Sequence record: MN432485
Source of the DNA: Shigella phage SFP17
Reading direction: 5' to 3' (one strand)
DNA length: 51,296 nucleotides
In this document: positions 674 to 47,905 of the stretch, one piece after another
Layout of the letters: each line of letters opens with the position of its first letter
Numbering within the stretch: the first letter of the stretch is position 1
Translations under genes and position numbers: made by a program
The notes under the pieces: generated by a model
What the model was told of the DNA's origin: nothing
What the model saw: the letters and a program-made list of their open reading frames with translations, nothing else
Databases searched by the model: none

Positions 674-2257
674 ATGAATTTTTCGTTTGAAACCAATAAA
701 CTAACACCAAAACAAATTATCGAATTAGCTGATGCACAAGGATTGTCTCCGGTGCGCGTGTCCATTCAGGCAAACGGATACCGTCAATCGTCCAGCTTTT
801 GGGGTGAGGTTAATGATGTTAATAACGGAAACGATCGCTACCCTATAATTTCTCTTGGCAATGATGTTGATGTTGTTGGTAAGTTGGCGCGCAACATTGC
901 TCGATCAGTTCAGTTCCCTGAATCATCGGCATATATGCATTTTATCGGCTGCGTGTCTGCTGCAATGCTTGGACGCTTCACTGTTGAGTATCACGGAACG
1001 GATCAACCAACCGCTCTGTACGTTGTTACAAGCCAGCCTCCTTCAACTGGTAAATCTGCCGTTAACAGCCTGGCACTTGCTCCTATGGTTGCTGAAGTGG
1101 AAAGAATTAATGATCAGCGAAAGAAGGAGCGAAAAAAGATACAAGCTAAGCTGGCAGGTCTTGCAAAAGAGATGAAAAGCGAGCGCTCCGGCGCTGACAT
1201 GGAATCTCTGTACCAGGAGAAAGAAGATCTGGAAGAAAAACTGGAAAAGATGTGTGACATCGTTTTCCCTGTGTCCGACACAACGCCGGAAGGACTTGCA
1301 AGAATCAACAATCGCCAGGGTAACTTTGCTGTGATTTCAGACGAGGCAACAAGTATTAACAGCCTTTTAGGTCTGACATATGCCAATAGCGAACGTAAAA
1401 CCAACAGCGAACTTGTGCTAAAAGCATGGGATCATGGTCATGTTTCTATAGCTCGTGCAAACGCTGACAACAATATGAGTTTTAAAGCTCTTGGCTGTAT
1501 GGCGGTAATTGCCCAGGATGAAACAATCAATGCCATCATGGATGCAGGATCGCGCGGTATCGGTGTAAGTGAGCGTTATTTGCTTGTGCGTGAGGAATCA
1601 TTTTTAGGTCGTCGAAAGTTTGTTGATGATAACGGTGATTCTACTTATGAACCTGTTGATGGAGAACTGAAAAGCCAATATTTCAAGCTGATCCATAACA
1701 TCATGAGTGAATCGAACATCCAGCTTAAGATCAGCAAATCAGCAATGAGAGTTCTTAACATGGCTCGTCAGGAGATGGAACCGCACCTTGCCGATGGCGG
1801 AAAGTATTCGCATACAATGCTGCGCGGTGCGCTTGGCAAAATGGATAAGCAGGTGATCAGGATTGCTTCGGTTTTGCACACTATCCGCAATTGGTTTAAT
1901 CCTGGCGGATACCCTCAAAAGTCGAAAGAGATTGAGGTTGAAACCGTTCAGGAAGCACTGCTGATGTTTAGCGAGTTGAGCAAAACATACATTAGCGCCG
2001 CCAACGCTTCTGGCTATGCTGGTGATGATGCTGAAATGGGTAAACTAATCGAGATTATCACTCGACACGGTAAGGCTAACAAGGGAATCTTGAATGTGCG
2101 CGCCATATATGAGGCTGCACGAAAAGTTAAGCCGTTTGTTGGTCAGGCTGGCGTAATGAAGCGTATGGAAACGCAACTGCTGCCGATGCTTGAAGAAAGA
2201 AATTATATTTGTGTGATTAATGGCGTTGTTTTCGTAAATCCAACATTGCTGGGGTAA
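674..2257 (+). CDS. P-loop NTPase of unknown function (527 aa)
   Basis: RBS AAAGGAG 7 nt upstream; Walker A-like SQPPSTGKS and Walker B-like FAVISDEAT in translation; motif promoter at 601-645. Confidence 0.75.
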   Translation: MNFSFETNKLTPKQIIELADAQGLSPVRVSIQANGYRQSSSFWGEVNDVNNGNDRYPIISLGNDVDVVGKLARNIARSVQFPESSAYMHFIGCVSAAMLGRFTVEYHGTDQPTALYVVTSQPPSTGKSAVNSLALAPMVAEVERINDQRKKERKKIQAKLAGLAKEMKSERSGADMESLYQEKEDLEEKLEKMCDIVFPVSDTTPEGLARINNRQGNFAVISDEATSINSLLGLTYANSERKTNSELVLKAWDHGHVSIARANADNNMSFKALGCMAVIAQDETINAIMDAGSRGIGVSERYLLVREESFLGRRKFVDDNGDSTYEPVDGELKSQYFKLIHNIMSESNIQLKISKSAMRVLNMARQEMEPHLADGGKYSHTMLRGALGKMDKQVIRIASVLHTIRNWFNPGGYPQKSKEIEVETVQEALLMFSELSKTYISAANASGYAGDDAEMGKLIEIITRHGKANKGILNVRAIYEAARKVKPFVGQAGVMKRMETQLLPMLEERNYICVINGVVFVNPTLLG

Positions 2258-3992: not shown

Positions 3993-4035
3993 AATTAAAT
4001 TGATGATTTATATTTATATTTTAATGATTAAAAGT

Positions 4036-5151
4036 TCAATCAGCCATTTCTGGATAATGCATAAATCGCCCCACTTCTCCGTATTCTTTATCGTAAACAA
4101 TAACAGCTGCGCGGCGACGAGAACGCCATCCACCGCGCGCAGCATATGCATCTTTTGCCGCCATAGTGCTATGCACTTCAACAATGCCCAGGCTTGTTTC
4201 AGTTACTGTCTGATGATGCCAGTGCCCTACGTGAGCATACATCATTTTTGAATTTCCGAAGTCTTCGCGCCAGTCTGCCGCGCACATCATTAGTAATGTT
4301 TCAGGCTTGCGTATAGTGTGCCCGTGATGATATGCCAGGAATGTTTTGCCATACTGTGTGTGATGAACTACTCGCGGAGAAACATCAACATGCACTCGCG
4401 GCTCATTCTCATATGCTGCCGCCATTGCTGCGCGCAACCAGATCATGCCGCTTTGGTCGTGGTTTCCTTCAATAATCTGAATCTCGACGTTTTTGTGTTT
4501 TGATAACAGCTTTGTGATTGCTCGACGCACTGACCGGATGGCAACATAAACAAGTTTTGCGTATCGACTATCTTGATCTAATACGTGACCGCTTGCAGGT
4601 GTCACCGCTTCCAGTCCGTCGCTGTGAAGCATATCACCACCAATCAGCAAAACAGCTTTTTCACTATCCGGCGCGCACTGGATGGAATAATCAATGAAAT
4701 TATTCATTACGCGCTCTGCTGTTGCTGTATCCCAATTCTCGCCGCATTCATGCTTATGCGCCATTGCGCCCAAGTGCATGTCAAAGATCGGATACAGTGA
4801 TAACGTCTCGCTATAATCCTTTTGTGATTCTGGCTGTGGATCAAGTCGAGGAACTTCTTCGCTAAATGCATCCATAGCGGCCTGCATTAATGCTTCTAAC
4901 TGTTCGCGGTCCTTACTTGTCTTAATCCATGTCATAACCACATTGCCATCTTTATCAATTAGCTTTGATTCTCCAGTAACACCAAAACCAGGTGATCCGA
5001 TGGTTGTAACTTTACCTTGCTTTGCTAATCGTGCCGCGCGTCGCTCAATGCTGCGAACGTTCATACCATACTCATTAGCGATCTGCTTATATGTCTTTCC
5101 CTGCTTGCGCTCATTGATAAATTGTTCATCTGTGATTTTGATTTGCTTCAT
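4036..5151 (-). CDS. calcineurin-like metallophosphoesterase with N-terminal HTH domain (371 aa)
   Basis: HTH-like TYKQIANEYGMNVRSIERRAARLAKQG; phosphoesterase motifs GDMLHSD, GNHD, GHWHH; RBS AAGGAGA; ATG at 5151 (track start 5154 is TTG). Confidence 0.8.
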   Translation of the reverse strand: MKQIKITDEQFINERKQGKTYKQIANEYGMNVRSIERRAARLAKQGKVTTIGSPGFGVTGESKLIDKDGNVVMTWIKTSKDREQLEALMQAAMDAFSEEVPRLDPQPESQKDYSETLSLYPIFDMHLGAMAHKHECGENWDTATAERVMNNFIDYSIQCAPDSEKAVLLIGGDMLHSDGLEAVTPASGHVLDQDSRYAKLVYVAIRSVRRAITKLLSKHKNVEIQIIEGNHDQSGMIWLRAAMAAAYENEPRVHVDVSPRVVHHTQYGKTFLAYHHGHTIRKPETLLMMCAADWREDFGNSKMMYAHVGHWHHQTVTETSLGIVEVHSTMAAKDAYAARGGWRSRRRAAVIVYDKEYGEVGRFMHYPEMAD

Positions 5152-7173: not shown

Positions 7174-9229
7174 AATTAAAGTCCTTCTTGTACAAATTAT
7201 CTTCACCCTTGCTAGTCTTGCGGTGAGTCACACGCGATGGCGGCATAATGTGATTCACATATTGCATTATTTTTCGTGCATTACGATAGCTCGCCACCAT
7301 GCCAGCAACGCGGCGATCTGGTATGTGCTTAAGAGCAACGCTTCGCCATTTTGCGCGGCAAATTTGGCTCTCAGATTCAGGGAAAAATATCTCTCTCGCC
7401 CTGAAAGTGTCCATGCCATCGGAAAGCTCATAATTAAATATTATCCCTTTCTGGTTTTTCGTCATGTCAACCGAGAAAGATTGCACCTTGAACCAGTCGT
7501 TTTTTGTGTAGTGCTTTCCGCTCAACTTCTCGTTAGGGTCGATCAATGACATGTCGCAATGTCTGCACACCCTGGCCGCAATATCATTTTTCGTTCCACA
7601 ACCGCGATGAATAATCTTTTTAGTGCGCGGGTCAATCTGATCATCGCATGTCCTGAATTTAAAGAACCACTCGCATCTGTTGCCGTTTTCGTCTACGTTC
7701 ATACAACGACGAGCATAATAGCTATTAAGAGTTCCGCAAATAGGGCAAGGTTTCGGATCTTTACCATTTCTGAATCGCTTCTGATGCTGCGCCTGTTCAA
7801 GTATCGGATCAAAATAAAGCTCACCTAACTCATCCATAGTTCCTGAAAAATCCATTACTAGGTGATCATCTTTCTTGAATCCTTGCTCCTTATGCCACTT
7901 CTTAAGCAGTCGCATTCCGCGTCCTAAAAGCTGAATCAACAAAGTTAGCGATCCAATCTTGCGCAGAATAACAGACGTATCCCAAAACGGCACGTTAACG
8001 CCAGTTGTTAGCGCCTGCACCTGGAAGATGTATTTAACCTTCCCCTCGTATGCTTCCCTCAGCCACTCCTTGCGCTGATTGTCGCCAGTCTTACCAGTAA
8101 TGATCCTGTAAGTAGTCCCATGTGGCAACGCTGCCGCTGCCTCTTTGCAATGCCTTTCTCCTGCACATGTCACAAGTACGCCATTGCGGTTTTTACAGAT
8201 CTCGTGAACTTTTGCCATGATGCGCTTTGTCATGGTCGCTTCTTCATGAATTTTTTGTTCCATCCTACGAAGCGTTTTAGCGTCAAAGTCTGCAACGCCA
8301 TCCTCGCTGGATGCCTCAAACTCTGAAAGGTCATACCCTAGATCGCCAACGTCGCCAAAATTTGTTGGCACAACAGAACCGAATTTAATCAGGTAGTTGG
8401 TGTCAATATTAGTAACCTGTTCACGCCAGAATCCTTTTTGTTTTTTGTCTTCTACCAGGATCGGGACTACGCCGCGAAACTCCGATCCAGTCATGCCAAA
8501 TATGCGCAGTTCATGGCCATATGCTTTCCTGCAACGTCGCATCATTTCCATGATAATGACAGTGTATTGTGTGCGGCCTGTTCCCTCCATTGGCAAGCCA
8601 TCCTCACCAATCAGGAACTCTGTATTTCTGTTCCTGCTTCCCTTTGTTATGTCATAATCTGGATTTGGTACTTTTTCGCCTTTCTTAGTTGTCATTTGTA
8701 AAAATGACTCGTCTTTCTCTATTGCGTCGGCAAGGTCTTCCCAATCCACCTGGTGACACTCGTCAATCCCGATAACGTGCGGAACATAGTCGCCAAGCGC
8801 TTTAAACAGTCCATTAACTACAGTTCCCTCAGAACCAACAACGATCGGAAAGTATGCGCTTTTTGTCTTCAGTCCTGCACAATAGATGGAGTTCGGCACA
8901 CCAAGATTTGTTATCTCTTCAGAATCCTGATCCACAATCTCAGCCTGGCGAGCAAGGACCATCATTTTCAAGCCCATTTTCCGGCACTGGTGAGCAACCA
9001 TTGCAAACATCAATGTTTTGCCAGCCGATACGGACGCTTTAACAAAGAATGGATGCTCATAATTTTTCATACGCTTTGCGATCTCAGCGTATGCAACGCA
9101 CTGGTAAGGGTAAGGCACAATTTCGCCAACAGTGAATCGCTCCTGAATGGATTTAATTACCGCTTCACCAAGTGCTGATATTTGCTTTTCAATGTTTGGA
9201 ATCATTCTAAAACCTTTGAGTAATGCCAT
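7160..9229 (-). CDS. SF2 ATP-dependent DNA helicase with C-terminal zinc ribbon
   Basis: Walker A SVSAGKT, DECH box (GIDECHQV), paired C-terminal CxxC motifs; start ambiguous (ATG 9229 nearly leaderless, or ATG 9205 with AAGG RBS). Confidence 0.85.
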   Translation of the reverse strand: MALLKGFRMIPNIEKQISALGEAVIKSIQERFTVGEIVPYPYQCVAYAEIAKRMKNYEHPFFVKASVSAGKTLMFAMVAHQCRKMGLKMMVLARQAEIVDQDSEEITNLGVPNSIYCAGLKTKSAYFPIVVGSEGTVVNGLFKALGDYVPHVIGIDECHQVDWEDLADAIEKDESFLQMTTKKGEKVPNPDYDITKGSRNRNTEFLIGEDGLPMEGTGRTQYTVIIMEMMRRCRKAYGHELRIFGMTGSEFRGVVPILVEDKKQKGFWREQVTNIDTNYLIKFGSVVPTNFGDVGDLGYDLSEFEASSEDGVADFDAKTLRRMEQKIHEEATMTKRIMAKVHEICKNRNGVLVTCAGERHCKEAAAALPHGTTYRIITGKTGDNQRKEWLREAYEGKVKYIFQVQALTTGVNVPFWDTSVILRKIGSLTLLIQLLGRGMRLLKKWHKEQGFKKDDHLVMDFSGTMDELGELYFDPILEQAQHQKRFRNGKDPKPCPICGTLNSYYARRCMNVDENGNRCEWFFKFRTCDDQIDPRTKKIIHRGCGTKNDIAARVCRHCDMSLIDPNEKLSGKHYTKNDWFKVQSFSVDMTKNQKGIIFNYELSDGMDTFRAREIFFPESESQICRAKWRSVALKHIPDRRVAGMVASYRNARKIMQYVNHIMPPSRVTHRKTSKGEDNLYKKDFNYGND

Positions 9230-9243
9230 TTGGCGTGTATAAT
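9216..9243 (+). promoter_or_regulatory. sigma70-like promoter for regulator/primase operon
   Basis: TTGAGT - 16 nt - TATAAT within palindrome GTGTATAATACAC; divergent from helicase promoter. Confidence 0.4.
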
Positions 9244-9294: not shown

Positions 9295-9768
9295 ATGAAA
9301 GAACAGCGAATCGCAGTATCAACTGGTAAGATTGACAAACGCACAATCAATGGCAATAACGGAACTCGACGGGGTAAAGATAAGAAAAAGCGCAAGCGCC
9401 CTACAGGATACTATGTTTTAAAAGATGAAGTGCGCGCCGGACTAAAAGCACGGCTTGACATTCTTATTGAGTATTACGGCAGCGTGTCAGCAATGGCAAA
9501 GCGTCTTAACGTTAGCCAGCAAACTGTAAATCAGTGGCGCGTTCGCGGTATGATTTCAGCCGCTGGCGCTCAAAAGGTGCATAACGATTACAAAAAGTAT
9601 GGCTGTCAAGGCTATCGCGCTTCATTCTGCCGTCCAGATCTGCGATTTGATTCCAATGGAAAACCGCTCACAAAGAGATGTGATAAGCGTGAAATGTTGC
9701 GAGTGGTAAGAATGTCAGATTATGAGCCTGGCGGATTCCTGTATAAACCTGAAAGCACTAATTGCTAA
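9295..9768 (+). CDS. HTH DNA-binding protein (157 aa), putative replication/transcription regulator
   Basis: RBS GGAGA; HTH-like AMAKRLNVSQQTVNQWRVRG; basic N-terminus; directly upstream of primase. Confidence 0.65.
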   Translation: MKEQRIAVSTGKIDKRTINGNNGTRRGKDKKKRKRPTGYYVLKDEVRAGLKARLDILIEYYGSVSAMAKRLNVSQQTVNQWRVRGMISAAGAQKVHNDYKKYGCQGYRASFCRPDLRFDSNGKPLTKRCDKREMLRVVRMSDYEPGGFLYKPESTNC

Positions 9769-9775
9769 AAACAAT

Positions 9776-9813
9776 GCCTGGCATGATGTTATCATCTGTC
9801 AGGCTTTTTTGTT
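9776..9813 (+). terminator. hairpin + T-run (attenuator-like) between regulator and primase
   Basis: GCCTG...CAGGC stem with long loop followed by TTTTTTGTTT. Confidence 0.35.
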
Positions 9814-9823
9814 TGAGGTGCAT

Positions 9824-10756
9824 ATGAACAACGAAAACTTTATGGTTTATCAAAAGGAAGATGTTCTCCCATATATGCAAGGATTGTGGCGTGAGGCGCT
9901 ACAAAGTATTTGCGGTCTTCCAAATGAAGTTTTTAACGGCAAGCATCAATCTTGCCCCCACTGCGGCGGAAAGGATCGCTTCAGATGGACGGATAAACTT
10001 GGCGATAAAAAAGGCGATGGCGGTGCGATCTGCAACGTGTGCGGTAATGATACCGGAATTGGTTGGATCATGAAGCTAACCGGAGAACCTTACAGCGAAG
10101 TGATCAATATTTTGGGCCGCTTTCTTGGAAAAGTTCCGCAGGACTATAGAATCAAGGCAAATAAGCGAGTATCTCGTGATTCTGGTTATTCGTTTGGGAA
10201 ACAGGCAAGCCATGAATGCTGCGAGCGCGTTATGTCAAAAACACTAAAATTTGATCGCACGCCGTTAAGCACATATGAAGGAATATACCCGCCTGAAGAT
10301 GGTCATTATGATTGCGGCGTTAAAGATGGTCGATACATTCACGCGCTCCCATGTTACCTGGTACATTCAGATGAAATTGATGATGAAATGTGCAATGTGC
10401 TTTTCATTGATGAAGAAGGTAATAAGTCTTTTCTCGCAAAGGACTACACGCGCGGGTCGATTGTGAGAACAGGAAGCACAGATAAGACGATCTATCTTTG
10501 CGTTGACTGGATTGATGCGCAACACATCCATCTTGCAACTGGTCAAGAGGTTTGGGCCTGTTTTGATGCAACTAACATTGAGATTGTGGCTTACAGGTAT
10601 AAAGGCAACAGAAGAATGCGAGTTGTCTGTAAGAGCACAGATCGTGACGCTATCATTGCCGCAGAGGAAAGAGGTCTTGAAATTATGATGCCGATTAATG
10701 ATAATTACAGGCAAGGGATAGAGAAGAAGGTTTACAAACCTGAATCTCTTCTCTAA
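9824..10756 (+). CDS. DNA primase (zinc-binding plus TOPRIM-like)
   Basis: Zinc motif [14 protein letters not shown]...CNVCG; acidic DxD-like core; RBS GAGGTG; ATG at 9824 (track start 9722 is non-ATG and crosses a hairpin). Confidence 0.75.
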
Positions 10757-16550: not shown

Positions 16551-17612
16551 TTAAATAAGATATTGCTTAAACTGGCGTCGCACCCAATCAGGAGTATCAA
16601 GGCAAACCTCCGGCTCACCGTTTGAATACGAAGGCCAAACGTCATGTTGCTGGCACATGGCAAACTGGTTAATTACGCTCATGTACTGAATGCGCCCGAT
16701 CTTCAATTGCTCGCTATTCATGCGGAAAGCCAACGGCAAATAAGGCTCTTTATTCTCTTGCGCTAACAGTCGAACAACTATAGGTCGCTTTTCTTCTGGA
16801 TACGCTTTTCTGAATAAATCACATTGCAACGCCATTTTCAAATAATAGCCGTGATTGTAAGCCAGGCGCATAAACTCAACCGGATTCGCGCTCATTGTGG
16901 TTTTGTAGTCTGTGATCACAATGGCCTCTGGATAAATAATATCGCGGCAAATCGGATGACCTTTTTCATCGTAACCATCAATCAGCGTTGCGGTGACGTT
17001 CTTTGTTACGTCAACGTGATCGCATCGCACTTTGACTTTTACGCCGTTGATTTCACCGAACAACGATAATTCACGTTGTGCTGTCTTGCTATTCATACAT
17101 GCGTTATGTTCCGGTATTGATTCCAGAACCTGGCGCATTGCAACGCACGCATCGTAATCTTTAGATTCGATTAGCTGTACGCCGTCAGCCCTGGCCTGGC
17201 TTTCTGCGATCATCTCAATCAACCACATAACGTTAAGGTCTTCTCCGCAATCCACCATCATTTTGATAAGGTCTGGATAAGTCTTTCCTGTTGTACCTTT
17301 CAGGCCAAATGATTTCAGCTTTGCAGCAAGTGCCGTTTGGCTAGTTATCAGATCCTTAAAGTCTTCTGGCGCTGGCGCGCGTCGATAGGTTTTTTCGAAA
17401 AGCTCCTTGCTTTCAAAGTTGGTATGCGACTGCGTACCGAAAACTAGCGCCTTGCTCTTATCGTCACGCGGCTTGAACTTCCACGCTGCCGGGCATGTGC
17501 TGTAAATCTCTGCCAGGCTTGAACCGCTAACATAATCAGCCGTCCACGCTTCTGGATCGTGATAAAGCTCATTGCTCATTTCTTCGCTGGTGTACGCCAT
17601 AAACTTATTCAT
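16551..17612 (-). CDS. PD-(D/E)xK recombination exonuclease (353 aa)
   Basis: ITDYKTT catalytic-core motif; RBS GAGGG; first gene of the exo-erf-ssb module. Confidence 0.8.
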   Translation of the reverse strand: MNKFMAYTSEEMSNELYHDPEAWTADYVSGSSLAEIYSTCPAAWKFKPRDDKSKALVFGTQSHTNFESKELFEKTYRRAPAPEDFKDLITSQTALAAKLKSFGLKGTTGKTYPDLIKMMVDCGEDLNVMWLIEMIAESQARADGVQLIESKDYDACVAMRQVLESIPEHNACMNSKTAQRELSLFGEINGVKVKVRCDHVDVTKNVTATLIDGYDEKGHPICRDIIYPEAIVITDYKTTMSANPVEFMRLAYNHGYYLKMALQCDLFRKAYPEEKRPIVVRLLAQENKEPYLPLAFRMNSEQLKIGRIQYMSVINQFAMCQQHDVWPSYSNGEPEVCLDTPDWVRRQFKQYLI

Positions 17613-17722
17613 GATTTGCCCTCATTGGTTGGTATGTCTGCATTGTAGCTATTTGATGCGTTTAGTCAATAGTTATTTTGTTTTTTCTGTTCTAACAACG
17701 TTCTCACCAACTTGGATAACAA

Positions 17723-17738
17723 AACTTACATGTAAGTT
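17723..17738. promoter_or_regulatory. 16-bp perfect palindrome AACTTACATGTAAGTT
   Basis: Exact inverted repeat ~110 bp upstream of exonuclease start, flanked by GGATAACAAA and TTGATAAAT. Confidence 0.4.
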
Positions 17739-17830
17739 ATTGATAAATATACGCGTTGTCTTTTTGTTCTCTTGTTCCTCCATTTGCGCCGGATATAGAT
17801 ATATAGACACACACAACCACTGACACATAC

Positions 17831-17940
17831 ATAATCACAATAAAAATCACCGGACACGCAAAATCACACAAAACATAGATAACAAGAAAAAACAAATATA
17901 AATATATATACTACTAACTTATTGATTTATATGTATGTAT
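17831..17940. repeat. iteron/AT-rich repeat block, copy A
   Basis: ATCACA/ATCACC iterons incl. TAAAAATCACC, then AACAAATATAAATATATATACTACTAACTTATTGATTT; ~85 percent identical core to 47491-47530; plus strand almost G-free. Confidence 0.6.
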
Positions 17941-18039
17941 ATATATTTATCTGTATGTATTGCGCTCTATTGTTGCTCACATTTTGAGCTAAATTTAAGC
18001 CTCCGCAGATTTGAGAACGCAGGATAACAAAAAGAACAG

Positions 18040-18083
18040 GATAGCACTTTTTGCTAAACGCCCACCGCAAGATCGTGTATAGT
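18040..18083 (+). promoter_or_regulatory. conserved-motif promoter upstream of cor
   Basis: GATAGCACTTTTTGCTAAACG + 21 nt + TATAGT. Confidence 0.5.
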
Positions 18084-18114
18084 TGCAACCAACAACAACT
18101 AAGGAGACACCAAA

Positions 18115-18342
18115 ATGAAAAAGTTAATCGCCGTTTTGATTGCCACCGTTGCACTGACTGGATGTGCAAATATGCCTAAGCGTGAATGCACGGCTATTTA
18201 TGAAAATAGCGGCATGCAGTATTCAGTTGCTATTTTTGGAGCAAAACGAGTTGGCGATCGCACTCTTGTTAAGGCTGGCTATCCGTTTAATTTTCAGTGG
18301 GTAAGTATTGATAACTTTAAAAACGCTGATTGCAGCATGTAA
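18115..18342 (+). CDS. cor: Cor-like superinfection-exclusion lipoprotein
   Basis: Signal peptide with lipobox LTGC; 75 aa; between tail and recombination modules; strong RBS AAGGAGA and own motif promoter. Confidence 0.55.
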   Translation: MKKLIAVLIATVALTGCANMPKRECTAIYENSGMQYSVAIFGAKRVGDRTLVKAGYPFNFQWVSIDNFKNADCSM

Positions 18343-31448: not shown

Positions 31449-32423
31449 TTAACCTGATTTTTTCAAGCCAGTAATAAGTACTAGCGTAAACGGACGGTAA
31501 ATCGTCAGGCCAGTACATTTTGAAGTGCACGGAACTTTGAAATGCAGATCTTTTGGTTGCGCCGGAAGCATGTTAAATGCTTCTGGAATTTCGATCGACA
31601 TGTTCATCGGGTCTTTCTCATATACCAGGCAACCTTTCGTTCCAGCGCCATCAATATCCTCAAGCTCTGCGATTGAGTCGATGGTGATTCCGCTGTTTTG
31701 TTTCTGGAAGTATTCCAGATAACTTTCAGTGGTGTTTTCCATTCGAACGGAAAGAACCTTGCGCATAGACGGCGGAATCAAGATATTGGTTGCGCGGTGC
31801 TGACCATTGGTGATGGTCTGAATGGTTTCAATAGCCTTTTCCAGTTCATCAGATGCAGCCTGCGGGAACTTAGTGTTTTCATCATTACTTAACCAGCCAG
31901 AAGACATGATCTTTGTCAGGTTAGGATGTTCGAACACCGAAAGAATCTTATGCGGCTTTGAACCCTTAAACACCAGGCGGTTAACTTCCTGATCATGAGC
32001 GTTTTGCGCTGCGTTTGCCTTGCGAGTGGAAAGGCTCTTACCAGTGCGCTGACCAGCCTTGATTTCGTCAATGGAGATCAAGAACGCGTTACCCAGGCGG
32101 AATACTTTACCGAACTCGCTAGACATCAGCGCGTCAACGGTCGGCAGGTCGTCGGTGTAATCAGCGATAATTTTTGCGTAACCAACTTTGTCAAACATCT
32201 GATATTCAAAAGTCTTATCAGTATCAGAAAGCTCATTAGTTACAGGGAATACGCGAAGCGCTGAACCTGCCGGATATTCTTTCTCGTAAGCATTAGAGCG
32301 AATCTTATGCAGTTCTTGAGCGGCCCAAATACCCATATCGGACGCATCACCTTTAACGCCGCGAGTAGCCAGATAGCTAGAAACAATGTCCGCATCTAGC
32401 TGATCAAATTTTTCTTTTTCCAT
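31449..32423 (-). CDS. major capsid protein
   Basis: 324 aa, strong RBS GGAGGAAG, strong terminator downstream; position after scaffold and decoration-like genes. Confidence 0.8.
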   Translation of the reverse strand: MEKEKFDQLDADIVSSYLATRGVKGDASDMGIWAAQELHKIRSNAYEKEYPAGSALRVFPVTNELSDTDKTFEYQMFDKVGYAKIIADYTDDLPTVDALMSSEFGKVFRLGNAFLISIDEIKAGQRTGKSLSTRKANAAQNAHDQEVNRLVFKGSKPHKILSVFEHPNLTKIMSSGWLSNDENTKFPQAASDELEKAIETIQTITNGQHRATNILIPPSMRKVLSVRMENTTESYLEYFQKQNSGITIDSIAELEDIDGAGTKGCLVYEKDPMNMSIEIPEAFNMLPAQPKDLHFKVPCTSKCTGLTIYRPFTLVLITGLKKSG

Positions 32424-32469
32424 TTTCTTCCTCCATATATAAAGGTCGTTAGTATGTAACGGACCAATG

Positions 32470-32489
32470 ATAGCATTTTTTGTTAAACG
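32470..32489 (+). promoter_or_regulatory. conserved motif copy in reverse orientation relative to flanking capsid genes
   Basis: ATAGCATTTTTTGTTAAACG reads rightward between two minus-strand capsid genes; poor -10 (TATGGG). Confidence 0.35.
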
Positions 32490-32506
32490 TGCAACATAAT
32501 TTTGTG

Positions 32507-32941
32507 TTATGGGTCAATGCTTACCCCGACAATATATGAATCATTATCAACCTTTACATGTTCGCCAGTAAAGATCCAACCAATCAGCAAGTCGCCTTCA
32601 CTGTATGCCACATCTCCATCTTGCGTTACAAATACTTTATCTCCATATTCTGGCGCTTCGCTCTCAGAAGTTAAGCACCAAACATTACCTCGACTAACCA
32701 CATTAACTGGATCGCCCTCCTCATATATGCACGAGTCCGGCGGCCTTACTGCCACGCCAATAACGAGATCCCCATTAACACTTGCTATTTTGTATCCATT
32801 TGTTGTATGTGATAGTCGCACAATCTTACCTGGCTCAATAAATTCATCTCCGCACACGAAAGATCCGTTAATCACCATTATTGAAGAATCGACCATGCAC
32901 CCTGGCGACTCAGCGCCAACAATGACTGAATAATCACTCAT
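32507..32941 (-). CDS. capsid-associated (decoration-like) protein, paralog 2
   Basis: Shares G-V-W-L...AP..G...DG.V....G....WI.TG...K block with 32987-33499; RBS GGAG. Confidence 0.55.
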   Translation of the reverse strand: MSDYSVIVGAESPGCMVDSSIMVINGSFVCGDEFIEPGKIVRLSHTTNGYKIASVNGDLVIGVAVRPPDSCIYEEGDPVNVVSRGNVWCLTSESEAPEYGDKVFVTQDGDVAYSEGDLLIGWIFTGEHVKVDNDSYIVGVSIDP

Positions 32942-32954
32942 GAGAACTCCAAAT

Positions 32955-32979
32955 ATAAAAAAGGCGCTCAGTGAGCGCC
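32955..32979 (-). terminator. intrinsic terminator between the two capsid-associated paralogs
   Basis: GGCGCT-loop-AGCGCC followed on minus strand by TTTTTTATATTT. Confidence 0.65.
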
Positions 32980-32986
32980 ATATTTA

Positions 32987-33499
32987 TTAACCTGCTGAAA
33001 CTGCCGGAACTTTTTGCACCTGAACCTCTACCAGCTTCAAGTCTTGAAACTTGGTGAAATCACCAGTCGCGATCCAGTTTGTTTCGATAGTGCCAGACGT
33101 GGTATCGACCTGACCATCATCAGACAGTTTGATTGCAGTGCCGAAAGCTGGCGCGGAAGCGTCTTTAGCCAACATCCAAACACGCCCCTCAGTCATTACG
33201 TTGATTCCGCCGCCAGATTCATAAATCATTCGACCGTCAGACGAAGTTGTCTGAAAGTGAGATCGAATTGCAACGCCGTAAGCCTTTCCGCTTGCCGCCA
33301 TCGGCTTAATTAGCTTATTGCCCATAGCGTCAACGCCGCCATGCTGGACCGCCACACCAACAAAAACAGACTGATTCTGATTGCCTGCTGCATTCTCAAG
33401 AACACAAGCGCCATCAATATTATAAGCTGAAGTGTCAGAAACCTGACCAGGTAACGCACGAGACATTACAGCAAAGTAGCTTGCTCCAATTGTAGCCAT
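32987..33499 (-). CDS. capsid-associated (decoration-like) protein, paralog 1
   Basis: Paralogous to 32507-32941; RBS AGGAGA; terminator downstream. Confidence 0.55.
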   Translation of the reverse strand: MATIGASYFAVMSRALPGQVSDTSAYNIDGACVLENAAGNQNQSVFVGVAVQHGGVDAMGNKLIKPMAASGKAYGVAIRSHFQTTSSDGRMIYESGGGINVMTEGRVWMLAKDASAPAFGTAIKLSDDGQVDTTSGTIETNWIATGDFTKFQDLKLVEVQVQKVPAVSAG

Positions 33500-33511
33500 G
33501 TTTATTTCTCC

Positions 33512-34624
33512 TTATTTAAGTTTTTTCAAACGCGCAGTAGGATCAAGGGAGTCGGTTTTTTCACTCTTGCCAGATTCGAAAGAATCGCCCTTAACAGATT
33601 TACGCTGCGCCGCCATTTTATCAGACTGCTTCGCAAGGTCAAAAGCTGTTTCAATATATGCATCGGCTTTTTCTGAAATATCAGCGCCAGTGACTTCTTT
33701 GACATAAGCAACCTTGATCGCTTTAGCGTCCAATCCGTCACACTTGATGCCAATTTCAGTTGCATCTGCAACCAGCTTGGCGTGTTCTTCTGCGTCAGTC
33801 TTTGCCTTCTTAACAGCTTCTGCAATCTGCGCCGGAATGCCATCGACTTTAGTTTTCAGGGCGTCGCGCTCGGCCTCAAGGCCATCAGCTTTTTCGGTTG
33901 CAGCTTTTGCGTCTGCCTTTAACGCCTCAATATGATCAGCAACGGCCTTTGGAACATCAAATTCTACCGCGCCATCAAGTTTAATTTTTACTGTCATTTC
34001 CTCATCTCCTTTGTCATTTAGAACCTCGTCACTATACGGAAAATCTTGTTCACTATCAAGATTTAATTTGGCAATGCCAGCACGACCACGAAAGACAAGA
34101 GCAATGTGATTAACTCTGATGTTAGTCTGAATGGCGTCAAATTTCACCCAATCAGGAGAATCCGGATTCCAGTCTTCTTTAATGTCTTCCTCAAATAAGT
34201 AATCACCAGTTTTATTGTTGCCCCAGCCTGGCTTATCAATATCAATTGATGTGTAACCAACTGAAATTTCAGCCGTATCTTTCTTTTTTGCGCTCTCAAT
34301 TGCTCGCTTTGAGTAAATGCTTAACGGAACTTCAACGCCAATTCCATTAGGAACACCAGCGCCAGCGCATGAACCAACAACAACCTGATCCGCATTATCT
34401 GGCGTCACTGTGACGTGACCGATAGTGATCGGCTTACCTGCGAAAGTAGCAAGGGAATCAGCCTTGAACACCTCGGACGCTGGACGGAACTCTCGTCTGA
34501 TTCCATACGGTGTGCGGTACTCCTGCAAGCCAATTCTCGCCACAATTGGGCGATCAACTAAAAAGCCATTATCATCAAAATGCGCCTTAACCTGGACGCT
34601 ATCAAATCTTTGTTTTGCCTTCAT
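33512..34624 (-). CDS. putative capsid scaffolding / maturation protein
   Basis: Globular N-terminal domain plus Ala/Lys/Glu/Asp-rich coiled-coil C-terminus; position between head morphogenesis gene and capsid. Confidence 0.5.
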   Translation of the reverse strand: MKAKQRFDSVQVKAHFDDNGFLVDRPIVARIGLQEYRTPYGIRREFRPASEVFKADSLATFAGKPITIGHVTVTPDNADQVVVGSCAGAGVPNGIGVEVPLSIYSKRAIESAKKKDTAEISVGYTSIDIDKPGWGNNKTGDYLFEEDIKEDWNPDSPDWVKFDAIQTNIRVNHIALVFRGRAGIAKLNLDSEQDFPYSDEVLNDKGDEEMTVKIKLDGAVEFDVPKAVADHIEALKADAKAATEKADGLEAERDALKTKVDGIPAQIAEAVKKAKTDAEEHAKLVADATEIGIKCDGLDAKAIKVAYVKEVTGADISEKADAYIETAFDLAKQSDKMAAQRKSVKGDSFESGKSEKTDSLDPTARLKKLK

Positions 34625-34627
34625 TAA

Positions 34628-35392
34628 TTACTCTCCTTTATTATTCCAATCTGGAATCGCCCAGCAACGGCAACCCCACGGCTCACCAGGGAAATCATGA
34701 ATTGCATCAAGCGCTATTCTTTTACCTTCCCATAACACATGCTGCAAGCGCTCTCTATCATCTAACATCCCATGCCAGAAATAATGAGTCACCTTAGCAT
34801 CATAAAGGCGCTGGCGCATCAGGCGACTATTCCACGCGCCGATAATGTTTTCTGATCTTGTTTTGCCCCAAGAGCTATAAACAGCAAATCTCTTTTCTGC
34901 AAGATCATTAACCTGTTTATCATTGCTTCCGCGAAAGTTTGCATTGCGAATGTTTGTTGACCAGTCAGACACAATATTTGTGAATAGCTTCCTTAGCGAT
35001 GATTCTGTAAGGCCGTGCCATTGACCGTAAAGCGTCTGATACCACTCCTCGTTAGCGTTAGCGCCAATCGCGATCAAAACAATTACCGCCGTGTTATCCT
35101 TTCCGCCAGTTGACTTGGCAACATTGATAAACTGCTTCGCATTGAATTTATAAATGGTCAACGCGATTGCAGGAAGAGTGGAAACAATGCCAGCTATAAG
35201 GTCAGTTGCCAGGATGTTAATTTCATCTTCTGCGCTGTTGATCTCATTATCTGTTGCGTCAAACTTCATCGCTTTTGTTCGCTTGCGCATGAGAACCACA
35301 AGATCTCTAATTGCCTCCTGAATTGAGCGGCTAAATTGCCGCTCGCTTGCTTCAGGAAAGCGCCATTGTTTAACGACGCCCTTCACTTTCAT
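34628..35392 (-). CDS. head morphogenesis (minor head) protein
   Basis: Directly downstream of portal; C-terminal CRCWAIPDW motif. Confidence 0.6.
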   Translation of the reverse strand: MKVKGVVKQWRFPEASERQFSRSIQEAIRDLVVLMRKRTKAMKFDATDNEINSAEDEINILATDLIAGIVSTLPAIALTIYKFNAKQFINVAKSTGGKDNTAVIVLIAIGANANEEWYQTLYGQWHGLTESSLRKLFTNIVSDWSTNIRNANFRGSNDKQVNDLAEKRFAVYSSWGKTRSENIIGAWNSRLMRQRLYDAKVTHYFWHGMLDDRERLQHVLWEGKRIALDAIHDFPGEPWGCRCWAIPDWNNKGE

Positions 35393-46443: not shown

Positions 46444-46698
46444 AATATCTGTTGTGACTTGTTGGTGTATTACGTTTTTGCCGTTGCGGTATGTGCTATC
46501 CGTTGCGCCTTTGCAATTTGTGTAATAGATCGCGCGACCGTTATCATAGAATCTGTATGCTGTGCATCCGTCAACAGTGAACAGGCGACCGACTTTGAAA
46601 TCTGACTCCACGCCTACGACAACCGTTGATTCTGACGCCTTTTCGCATCCGGTCAGCGTAGCGATTGCAATCAAAAGTCCAATTAATGCCTTATTCAT
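46438..46698 (-). CDS. lipoprotein (86 aa)
   Basis: Signal peptide with lipobox LTGC; RBS AGGTGGGGG. Confidence 0.6.
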   Translation of the reverse strand: MNKALIGLLIAIATLTGCEKASESTVVVGVESDFKVGRLFTVDGCTAYRFYDNGRAIYYTNCKGATDSTYRNGKNVIHQQVTTDIK

Positions 46699-47267
46699 TA
46701 TTCATCCCCCACCTTTACCATCTCGTTGAGCATTTCATTCATTCGCTCAAGTGCGATTGCCGCACCCTCCAGGCGCTCACCTTCCAGATCACTGATTCGC
46801 GGCTGTGTTTTCAGTAGTTGAGCAACAAACTTTGCTCGCCACTTGATTTCAAGTTTCGCTATATCATCTCCAGTCAGAACGCGAGGCTTGCTTTTGGCTT
46901 CAGTGAGCGTAAACACAAAGCCATCACCCTCATCAGTCACCTTTCGCTTAATGCTGATCACGCCTTTTTGCTTTACTTCTGGCACACGGTTGACCACCTG
47001 GCGCATGTACGATGCTGTAATTGCGTCGCCGTTCTCCACGTTAGCGCACAAGAAAAGTGCTGGCATGAATACATTATTACGCTCACCACTACCAATTGCC
47101 GCGCCCAGGTCGCGAAGCATATCGCAGAACTCACTACGCGACATGGTGCTAATATTTTCTTCATTCATGGCGTCTACTCCTTTTGTTGCGTTTAAACTGG
47201 ATGCATTATTGCCTTGCCCTTCCCACGTGTCAATGTATTCTTGTGTTTTAATAACAATTTTTGGCAT
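46698..47267 (-). CDS. hypothetical early protein (189 aa)
   Basis: First minus-strand gene after the 47.3-47.9 kb non-coding region; clean ORF. Confidence 0.6.
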   Translation of the reverse strand: MPKIVIKTQEYIDTWEGQGNNASSLNATKGVDAMNEENISTMSRSEFCDMLRDLGAAIGSGERNNVFMPALFLCANVENGDAITASYMRQVVNRVPEVKQKGVISIKRKVTDEGDGFVFTLTEAKSKPRVLTGDDIAKLEIKWRAKFVAQLLKTQPRISDLEGERLEGAAIALERMNEMLNEMVKVGDE

Positions 47268-47375
47268 GTGGCGCGTTTAAAGATAACAAAATGCTTCAGT
47301 TAAGTCATTGGTTTTTCTGTTAAAAGTGACCTTGTTGACTTGGTTGACGGAGGATTGCCCCATACCCATATATAT

Positions 47376-47545
47376 ACATATAAAAATCACCACACATCAC
47401 CATTGATTAAAAAATATACAATCACACATACATATCACCACAAACAATACCACTCCACCATATACCCATAGAACAAGCTCAACAGTAAATAACAAATATA
47501 AATACATATATAACTAACTTATTGATTTTATGGGTATATATATAA
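47376..47545. repeat. iteron/AT-rich repeat block, copy B
   Basis: TAAAAATCACC plus 4-5 ATCAC(C/A) iterons, then AACAAATATAAATACATATATAACTAACTTATTGATTTT; direct orientation relative to copy A; plus strand almost G-free over ~125 bp. Confidence 0.6.
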
Positions 47546-47768
47546 ATTTTACTTTGTTCTTTTTGTTGATGAACGCCGATTCTGTTATCTAAAAGTGCGG
47601 AGGCTTATTTGAGATAACATGGGGAACAGAAATAACAGATGCGCGCGCCAGGATTGCTGGAAAGGATGCAAGAGGGCCGTGTTTCTCTATCCCCTCCACA
47701 CAAAAAGTTAATCACTTGATTAAAATTGACCAAACTCAAAGTCTCACAATCCAGGTGATCGCGAATGA

Positions 47769-47813
47769 GTTATTCCTGTTATTCCTGATTAATGGAATAG
47801 ATGGAATAATAAC
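47769..47813. promoter_or_regulatory. operator-like repeat array (GTTATTCCT x2 followed by inverted GGAATAgatGGAATAATAAC)
   Basis: Four half-sites with dyad symmetry centred about 47790, 10-50 bp upstream of motif promoter 47822. Confidence 0.4.
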
Positions 47814-47821
47814 CAGTCAGC

Positions 47822-47867
47822 AAATAGCACTTTTTGTTAAAACGTGCCTGACTGGATTCGGCATAAT
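47822..47867 (+). promoter_or_regulatory. conserved-motif promoter
   Basis: AAATAGCACTTTTTGTTAAAAC + 22 nt + CATAAT; upstream of 47906-48178. Confidence 0.5.
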
Positions 47868-47905
47868 GCACACATCGAAACGAGATACCATTCAGGAGAT
47901 AGCAA

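Follow-up and report, generated by a model that had tools for sequence, protein, structure and literature searches.

Two distant intergenic regions of SFP17 share an origin-like module

The stretch of DNA analyzed here, a 51,296-bp sequence from Shigella phage SFP17 (MN432485; hereafter the window), is the complete and circularly permuted genome of a T1-like siphovirus of the genus Hanrivervirus (Drexlerviridae, Tempevirinae), whose nearest relatives are the E. coli phages vojen, Fulano1, egaa, herni, and JLBYU41 (93-97% identity). Two divergent intergenic regions about 30 kb apart, namely, region A (17613-18114, between a recE-like gene and cor) and region B (47169-47905, or 47169-47641 in the narrower sense, a long region between two clusters of small early genes), may represent two copies of a single origin-type nucleoprotein assembly module. 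We give close to an even chance to this reading, in which both are candidate origins or one is an origin and the other an auxiliary or required cis site, and the pair would offer the best candidates so far for the origin of the T1 family. No origin is known for T1-like phages, as neither an origin nor iterons were found in previous work (PMC7718038 and PMC11447400), and the SU57 paper also reported that the origin was not found. Beyond such statements, the searchable literature contained no description of the A/B pair, of a T1-family origin, of dependence on integration host factor (IHF), or of transcription starts.

An initial annotation of region A had proposed a G-depleted, AT-rich non-coding region with features of a replication origin or another protein-assembly site and with a homologous counterpart 30 kb away. 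All the elements that it listed were recovered at the same place or within a few bases, and the non-coding nature of region A was supported. Both regions stand out from the rest of the genome by composition, as they occupy the first two ranks for AT content at scales of 60, 100, and 200 nt, as well as the first two ranks for scarcity of G per 100 nt (a single G at 47364 in region B and five at 17824 in region A). They also contain the two least stable 80- and 150-bp segments of the genome by nearest-neighbour energy. The second region proved to be a true paralogue of the first, since a gapped local alignment of A and B (133 columns, 77% identity) reaches a score of 97, and block-shuffled controls reach 45 at most. 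The similarity peaks in the AT core, previously estimated at about 85% identity, where 17881-17929 and 47481-47529 are approximately 90% identical. The 10-mer described as common to both regions, TAAAAATCACC, has exactly two copies in the genome, at 17841 in A and 47381 in B, and all three genome copies of GATAACAAAA fall in A or B. Finally, the perfect 16-bp palindrome reported in region A, AACTTACATGTAAGTT at 17723-17738, is one of only two in the genome.

The two regions are also enriched in short, helically phased boxes. Same-orientation AACA pairs separated by 8-11 bp occur 30 times in the genome, five times in A and five times in B, which together make up 2% of its length. This corresponds to 10 pairs per kb in the two regions versus 0.58 per kb genome-wide (with locally shuffled sequence as the control, p of about 0.001 in each region), and the two top-scoring 500-nt segments for such pairs are A and B themselves. 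Arrays of at least three strict boxes are found only twice in the genome, both times in region B. Exact matches to the IHF consensus WATCARNNNNTTR number 13 in the genome, compared with 7.3 expected, and 4 of these 13 lie in A and B, all on the minus strand. Repeated boxes, an easily melted AT core, and sites for a host factor thus lend support to the origin- or assembly-type grammar that the initial annotation had recognized.

The description of region A as carrying G-depleted iterons held only in part. The G-poor stretch is present, with 3 G in the 40 nt of 17831-17870 and ATCACA, ATCACC, and ATCACA at 17834, 17846, and 17863, but an iteron role for these elements was rejected. The ATCAC[AC] motif is only weakly enriched (8 of 105 genome copies) and absent from other lineages, and its location in the most variable, G-poor spacer together with its restriction to one lineage makes iterons unlikely. 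The third most AT-rich spot of the genome, at 3993-4040, is a C-free tract that follows a terminator-like hairpin between the holin and exonuclease genes. Neither boxes nor an IHF site were found there, and it is therefore not a third copy of the module.

Anatomy of the module

The plan of the module was derived from regions A and B of SFP17, vojen, T1, TLS, Rtp, and KP36, together with 44 distinct region A homologues from IMG/VR. Read rightwards, it comprises a promoter, a box array (L1), a GATAACAAAA box, an IHF site with palindrome, a second array (L2), a GC clamp, a G-poor spacer, array C, and the AT core, followed by array R1, a second GC clamp, array R2, and a 21-nt repeat with a -10-like hexamer, which in region A precedes cor. 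The boxes have (T/G)AACA as their common core and are spaced 9-10 bp apart, with one orientation per array and neighbouring arrays facing each other.

Region A starts with a sigma70-type promoter of the recE-erf-ssb operon on the minus strand (17642-17669; TTGACT, 16-nt spacer, TACAAT), in which AGTCAA is invariant among 13 lineage representatives. The TLS counterpart of this promoter is listed as P51 in Table S1 of PMC11447400. Array L1 (17676-17705, TTTTGTTTTTTCTGTTCTAACAACGTTCTC) lies upstream of the -35 hexamer (17664-17669) and reads GAGAACG-AGAACAG-AAACAAA on the minus strand. It is an inverted copy of array R2 (18013-18040, plus strand; GAGAACG CAG GATAACA AAA AGAACAG G), and each of the two arrays stops approximately 7-10 bp upstream of a promoter element. 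L1 is followed by the first copy of the GGATAACAAAA box (17714-17724, plus strand), at the equivalent position of which relatives have GACAACAAAA, GAAAACAAAA, or GTAAACAAAA, and then by the palindrome, which overlaps a sequence match to the IHF consensus (site 1, TATCAATAACTTA, 17733-17745) within a segment spanning 17723-17745 on the minus strand. Array L2 (17755-17778, GTTGTCTTTTTGTTCTCTTGTTCC) consists of three boxes in the TGTT orientation and forms an inverted repeat with array C. Next come GC clamp 1 (17783-17794, TTTGCGCCGGAT; equivalents TTTACGCCGCAT and TTTGCGGTGGG, and TTTCCGCGGA in Rtp) and the G-poor, CA-rich spacer (17795-17873, plus strand; A41 C21 G6 T11), which holds the three ATCAC[AC] elements and TAAAAATCACC. 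All 44 region A homologues keep this spacer in place, and no other part of the module varies as much in sequence and length.

Array C (17874-17897, plus strand, CATAGATAACAAGAAAAAACAAAT), with AACA-orientation boxes 9-10 bp apart, leads into a 75-bp dyad-symmetric AT core (17887-17961; arms 17887-17911 and 17937-17961) that is 87% A+T. This core is the least stable 80-bp stretch of the genome and a candidate DNA-unwinding element, and the second IHF consensus site (17915-17927, minus strand, AATCAATAAGTTA), identical over its 13 nt in region B, sits at the centre of the dyad. Array R1 is degenerate in A and clear in B. Further right, GC clamp 2 (17997-18010, AAGCCTCCGCAGAT) precedes array R2, which includes the second GGATAACAAAA copy (18022), and the module ends with a copy of the 21-nt repeat (ATAGCACTTTTTGCTAAA) and the -10-like hexamer TATAGT at 18079-18084 (18041-18084, plus strand), probably the cor promoter.

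In region B, the same plan spans 47205 to 47641. The sigma70-type promoter of the leftward early operon (47205-47233, minus strand; TTGACA, 17-nt spacer, AATAAT; P01 in TLS) is followed by a segment at 47282-47361 with the GATAACAAAA box (47282-47291), L2-type boxes (47312-47348), and GC clamp 1 (47346-47361). The CA-rich spacer is nearly free of G (one in 113 nt; 47358-47470, plus strand). Array C (47467-47497, plus strand) is made of AGAACAAG, TCAACAGT, and AATAACAAAT at a spacing of 9-10 bp, and the dyad-symmetric AT core (47487-47562; arms 47487-47512 and 47537-47562) has the AATCAATAAGTTA IHF site at 47515-47527 on the minus strand. The right side (47553-47641) consists of array R1 (TTTGTTCTTTTTGTTG, 47553-47568), GC clamp 2 (47593-47608), and array R2 (GAGATAACATGGGGAACAGAAATAACAGATG, 47611-47641). 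A further module (47642-47815) without counterpart in A comes next, and then a 21-nt repeat (ATAGCACTTTTTGTTAAA) with the -10-like hexamer CATAAT at 47862-47867 (47824-47867, plus strand), which is probably the promoter of the rightward early genes.

In region B, an inverted repeat also brackets array C and the AT core, ATATACCCATAGAA at 47460-47473 and TTTTATGGGTATAT at 47526-47539. Its TLS equivalent is ATACCCTAT / ATAGGGTAT (211-219 / 291-299), in which both arms differ in a matching way, and no clear equivalent was seen in region A.

As for the neighbouring genes, region A is flanked on the left by an exonuclease VIII/RecE-like gene (Pfam DUF3799; 16551-17612, minus strand) and on the right by the gene of the Cor superinfection-exclusion lipoprotein (18115-18342, plus strand), and lies directly upstream of recE-erf-ssb. 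The left neighbour of region B is a DUF7174 gene (46698-47168, minus strand), the first gene of the leftward early operon.

Conservation of the module and lineage-specific boxes

The module is conserved beyond the genus. By blastn, region A is approximately 74% identical to its counterparts in tonnikala, tonijn, SECphi27, and others, and approximately 68% identical to those of TLS-like phages; within the genus it is conserved to the same degree as the flanking genes. An AT peak of 0.83-0.92 is located about 270-310 nt from the recE start in 43 of the 44 region A homologues, with the G-poor stretch on the recE side. The alignment against related phages that the initial annotation had suggested revealed an A/B pair, with local similarity above shuffled controls, in all 10 genomes having both regions, including T1, TLS, Rtp, and KP36. 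In Rtp the two regions are 83% identical over 123 nt, and in KP36 they share about 55 identical bases. Regions of the B type were collected through their DUF7174 neighbour, which gave only 7 loci, because the early genes are mosaic. A search of E. coli chromosomes, prophages, satellites, and plasmids for copies of A or B gave no match. About 20 unannotated GenBank records titled "Campylobacter phage" (MG0656xx) are 92-100% identical to the E. coli phage group of SFP17 and are probably mislabelled or contaminant T1-like coliphages.

The sites for the host factor follow the pattern of a maintained recognition sequence, in that the consensus positions are kept and the N positions vary (AATCAAT-GG/GA/GT/AG/TA/TG-CTTA in T1-like lineages). 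The position of IHF site 1 is occupied in T1-like lineages, site 2 is retained in Hanrivervirus and related lineages, and TLS-like lineages have only sites with one mismatch and no exact match. The inner inverted boxes across the AT core are separated by 62-64, 73-74, or 83 bp among the Tempevirinae lineages, that is, by distances differing in steps of whole helical turns.

The boxes themselves change from lineage to lineage. They read GATAACA and AGAACAG in SFP17, GTAACAC (within TGTAACAC) in T1, GCGTAAC and GTTACA in Rtp, GTGAACA and GGAACA in TLS, and GTAAGAT in KP36, and in T1 all six genome copies of TGTAACA fall in A and B. The GGATAACAAAA repeat, judged by its sequence, is a member of this phage-lineage-specific (T/G)AACA family. 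Since T1, TLS, Rtp, and the relatives of SFP17 all infect E. coli, a host protein would not explain the change, which points to a phage-encoded box binder that would co-evolve with both regions. In addition, TLS keeps array R2 even though it lacks the cor gene and has no rightward promoter at this place; the boxes are therefore not only promoter operators.

A rearranged version of the locus was observed in KP36 (Webervirus), in which the recE-erf-ssb operon is inverted and adjoins the primase gene (32253-35008), the A-type module having moved along with it (34514-35008). The recE promoter of this phage is of the 21-nt-repeat type rather than plain sigma70.

Candidate box binders and replication proteins

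The replication genes of SFP17 encode a helix-turn-helix (HTH) protein (9295-9768), a primase (9722-10756), a DUF3987 "helicase" (674-2257, plus strand), and an SF2 helicase. The HTH gene overlaps the start of the primase gene, and its product is Cro-like, with matches to Cro proteins of the PDB (E of 2e-5 and 3e-4), Pfam P22_Cro and YdaS just under threshold, and assignment to PHROG 2856, "transcriptional regulator". All 842 records matching this protein are T1-like phages (Drexlerviridae), and a search for homologues outside this family that might offer genomic context found none. Across subfamilies the protein shows 55-71% identity, varying most in its recognition helix, a segment that differs in every lineage having a different box.

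The primase contains a P4-type zinc ribbon and matches the primase domain of the P4 alpha protein (E of 1e-11). No homologue of the origin-binding domain of alpha was detected in the HTH protein or elsewhere in the genome by tblastn with the alpha C-terminus. The HTH protein as an alpha-type origin-binding domain was thus ruled out, as it is Cro-like instead and the sole alpha homology is that of the primase domain. For the DUF3987 protein, an AlphaFold model (predicted local distance difference test score, pLDDT, of 89) gave MCM2-7 and archaeal MCM as the best solved matches in Foldseek (E of 2e-5 to 1e-3), and a winged-helix domain (residues 451-521) forms the end of the model. Judging from this model, T1-like phages seem to use an MCM-like replicative helicase.

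From these elements we infer a course of events that leads from the box binder through DNA melting to initiation. A phage DNA-binding protein would occupy the helically phased (T/G)AACA arrays, and the best candidates for it are the Cro-like HTH protein, whose translation is coupled to that of the primase, and the winged helix at the C-terminal end of the MCM-like helicase. Host IHF would then bend the DNA at the dyad centre of the 75-bp AT core so that the inverted arrays C and R1 meet. Opening would follow in this core, which is the least stable duplex of the genome, and the neighbouring G-poor strand would stay unstructured. The MCM-like helicase and the P4-alpha-type primase would then be loaded, after which host polymerase III would take over. 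A bolder version, which we regard as possible but doubtful, makes the twin modules the T1-family origins, with the lineage-specific boxes read by the Cro-like protein, the MCM-like helicase loaded head-to-head across the IHF-bent dyad, and the nearly G-free flank providing a hitherto undescribed type of strand-specific signal for loading or priming. The A copy, next to recE-erf-ssb, would in that version form a programmed fork barrier and so turn replication over to concatemer synthesis driven by recombination.

Several observations weigh against an origin. Regions A and B carry two of the three consensus sigma70 promoters, with L1 and R2 directly upstream, as activator or repressor sites would be. 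The core of the boxes is short and carries little information, and the density of AACA exceeds background by a factor of just 2 to 2.5. The GGATAACAAAA repeats at 17714 and 18022, which the initial annotation had likened to DnaA boxes, are indeed present, but neither region contains a match to the DnaA box TTATCCACA with at most one mismatch (13 such matches in the genome versus 12.7 by chance), and they are thus not DnaA boxes. There is no GATC cluster either, with one GATC in A and one in B versus a genome mean of 5.4 per kb. The cumulative GC-skew minimum does fall at B, but gene orientation switches there, so it provides no evidence of an origin. As for the binder, the boxes of T1 and Rtp are similar and their recognition helices different, and the winged helix of the helicase also varies, being among the least conserved parts of that protein; with both candidate domains varying, the covariation of binder and box is suggestive and not decisive. 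Finally, region A is approximately 7.8 kb from the HTH-primase genes and region B approximately 4 kb from the helicase gene, so that neither lies in or beside a replication gene, and A adjoins the primase only in KP36. Location of an origin in or beside the initiator or replication genes is common, not universal.

Were the origin reading correct, this would be the first origin for a phage using an MCM-like (DUF3987) helicase with a P4-type primase, it would give a function to the conserved "transcriptional regulator", and SPP1 would no longer be the only pac-type siphovirus with two distant origins, this being the second case. The analysis supplies two precise candidates of 200-300 bp, with sub-elements that can be mutated singly, for a family in which more than 800 phages have been sequenced. 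This family includes therapy candidates as well as notorious laboratory contaminants, and T1 itself belongs to the seven classical T phages.

Promoters and the 21-nt repeat

The only near-consensus sigma70 promoters found, in a search that covered part of the genome, are at 17642-17669 (minus strand), at 47205-47233 (minus strand), and at 9216-9243 (plus strand) before the HTH-primase operon. According to PMC11447400, TLS has only three consensus sigma70 promoters, located in B, in A, and before the HTH-primase operon, and the three of SFP17 correspond to them. This arrangement suggests three immediate-early operons. A promoter inside the AT core was considered and rejected, as neither a search nor inspection by eye gave a consistent sigma70 match.

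The 21-nt repeat ATAGCACnnnTTGnTAAA has 21 sites in the genome (e.g., 602, 5737, 18041, 28710, 47824, and 51222), and at all of them it points the same way as the genes. Most copies are accompanied by a -10-like hexamer whose start is 38-39 nt from the first base of the repeat, and the gap of 22 nt from TTGnTA to the hexamer, often containing a GC-rich hairpin, exceeds what a normal sigma70 -35 element allows. This repeat has been described in TLS, T1, and Rtp with no function assigned, and the available part of the TLS paper (PMC11447400) mentions neither the distance to the -10 hexamer nor the hairpin.

The packaging end lies in a separate part of region B

Genome ends were mapped indirectly, from where database records start. 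The G29-2 record begins at the equivalent of 47688 and the haarsle record ends at the equivalent of 47697, which places a probable pac end near 47688-47697, within the B-only module. The T1 and TLS records begin within approximately 60 bp of the equivalent point, in the untranslated region matching B. In agreement with this location, the pac site of TLS was mapped in the untranslated region corresponding to B (PMC11447400), and pac of T1 and other T1-like phages has been placed in the same untranslated region (PMC7718038). The TLS paper also reports a single pac site for T1 and TLS (PMC11447400). Because the record ends fall in a module that A lacks, region B is best described as combining an A-like module with a pac module, and cleavage is not at the shared module. 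The packaging role that the initial annotation had proposed for the repeated region was therefore not borne out, the ends mapping to the separate segment at approximately 47642-47815.

The B-only module also contains an IHF consensus at 47709-47721 and, at 47769-47810, inverted repeats made of two TTATTCC and two GGAATA. These repeats are also found in T1; TLS and Rtp carry other repeats there. A mosaic breakpoint at approximately 47614, inside B, separates the pac module from the shared module. Comparison of vojen (1071-1751) with SFP17 shows that a single exchange took in the left half of B along with the adjoining DUF7174 gene (27% protein identity). In the same pair of phages, the HTH proteins are identical, region A is 96% identical, and the sequence to the right of approximately 47614 is about 90% identical.

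Alternative explanations for the paired regions

The most serious competitor, in our view possible but rather unlikely, is that A and B are twin early transcriptional control regions, in which the Cro-like HTH protein and IHF looping shut off or time the recE promoter and the leftward early promoter in the manner of lambda OL/OR or the Mu early operator. Made from its own sigma70 promoter, the HTH protein may also activate the rightward 21-nt-repeat promoters. The Cro/YdaS-type HTH of the binder candidate fits such a role, as do the distribution of the three consensus sigma70 promoters of the family over A, B, and the HTH-primase operon, the placement of the mutually inverted L1 and R2 approximately 7-10 bp upstream of promoter elements, and the joint movement of the A module and the recE operon in KP36. 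However, the boxes are arranged as direct repeats, unlike palindromic operators, and lie clear of the -35 and -10 hexamers, and the promoter region of the HTH gene itself has no box array. The most conserved part, and the most similar between A and B (array C, the AT dyad with its IHF site, and R1), is 110-250 bp from either promoter, and the R2 array of TLS has no promoter to control. Regulation of this kind would also leave the two most meltable and most G-depleted sites of the genome unexplained. The two roles are compatible, since origins often coincide with regulated promoters, and if the operator role were true, A and B would define the early regulatory switch of the family.

We consider it improbable that the shared module serves packaging or recombination, either as accessory terminase-binding DNA, with A as a secondary or pseudo-pac site, or as a recombination or fork-arrest hotspot feeding RecE/Erf concatemers. 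The pac sites of P1 and SPP1 combine repeated boxes and bent DNA, with IHF too in P1, and region B is within 50-200 bp of the probable pac end, next to the further IHF consensus of the pac module. Region A adjoins recE-erf-ssb, and oriR of SPP1 has been proposed to act as a fork barrier (PMC6316719). Against packaging, the genome ends lie in the module that A lacks, a single pac site is reported for T1 and TLS (PMC11447400), the breakpoint at approximately 47614 parts the pac module from the shared one, and in vojen the shared module of B was exchanged with the leftward early genes and not with the pac module. Least probable is that A and B produce non-coding RNAs, such as an unstructured, C-rich, and G-poor transcript, or small proteins. 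The extreme depletion of G on one strand would indeed yield unstructured RNA, and some GenBank records annotate hypothetical open reading frames here, but Rfam gave no match even at E <= 1, no conserved promoter was found within the central part, and indels in the G-poor stretch, whose length and sequence vary, do not maintain a reading frame. Structured RNA was likewise rejected, with no Rfam match at the gathering score or at E <= 1 and no folding above shuffled sequence except for the AT palindrome: fold z-scores were -0.02 for B and -0.41 for the minus strand of A, and the -2.65 of the plus strand of A is owing only to that palindrome.

Comparison with known systems

The origin reading can be set against several well-studied systems. 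In iteron/IHF plasmid origins such as those of pSC101 and R6K gamma, initiator sites flank an AT-rich unwinding element and an IHF bend is located inside it. In dyad origins, such as the archaeal ORB-DUE-ORB arrangement (in which the inverted ORB sites flank the unwinding element, DUE) and those of SV40 and papillomavirus, inverted sites suit the head-to-head loading of AAA+/SF3 helicases, a point of interest in view of the MCM-like fold modelled for the SFP17 helicase. The likeness of SFP17 to both groups is one of grammar only, with no evidence of homology, and unlike pSC101 and R6K gamma, regions A and B have no DnaA boxes and their boxes are much shorter than iterons of 19-22 bp. Lambda OL/OR and the Mu early operator resemble A and B in consisting of two related or IHF-containing operators at divergent early promoters, and SFP17 encodes a Cro-type HTH protein. 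In contrast to these operators, SFP17 has phased boxes repeated in direct orientation outside the promoter hexamers, encodes the regulator at a distance of 8 kb, and possesses a large AT-rich dyad and a G-poor stretch that those systems lack.

Phage P4 offers a parallel in its ori and crr (NC_001609), two separate cis regions, bound by the alpha primase-helicase, with TGTTCACC / GGTGAACA repeats spaced 9-11 bp apart in both orientations around AT-rich DNA. The GAACA core of these repeats resembles the boxes of TLS and Hanrivervirus, and the SFP17 primase is homologous to the primase domain of alpha. Unlike P4, SFP17 yielded no homologue of the domain with which the C-terminus of alpha binds the origin, its helicase is MCM-like (DUF3987) and not that of alpha, its sites are 30 kb apart versus 4.5 kb, and its candidate origin module has a central IHF site and a G-poor flank.

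The virulent pac-type siphovirus SPP1, of similar size, has two distant and similarly organized origins, oriL and oriR, bound by gp38 (PMC6316719). These origins consist of repeats in direct orientation plus an unwinding element rich in AT, are among the most AT-rich islands of the genome, and one of them is in a long intergenic region (PMC6316719). The proteins are unrelated, SPP1 using a DnaB-type helicase with a loader, the host is Bacillus, oriL is inside the initiator gene, and binding and in vitro replication were demonstrated for SPP1, whereas for the SFP17 module both are predicted. [quoted passage not shown] The second SPP1 site has been proposed to arrest replication forks and so trigger recombination-dependent concatemer synthesis by these three proteins (PMC6316719).

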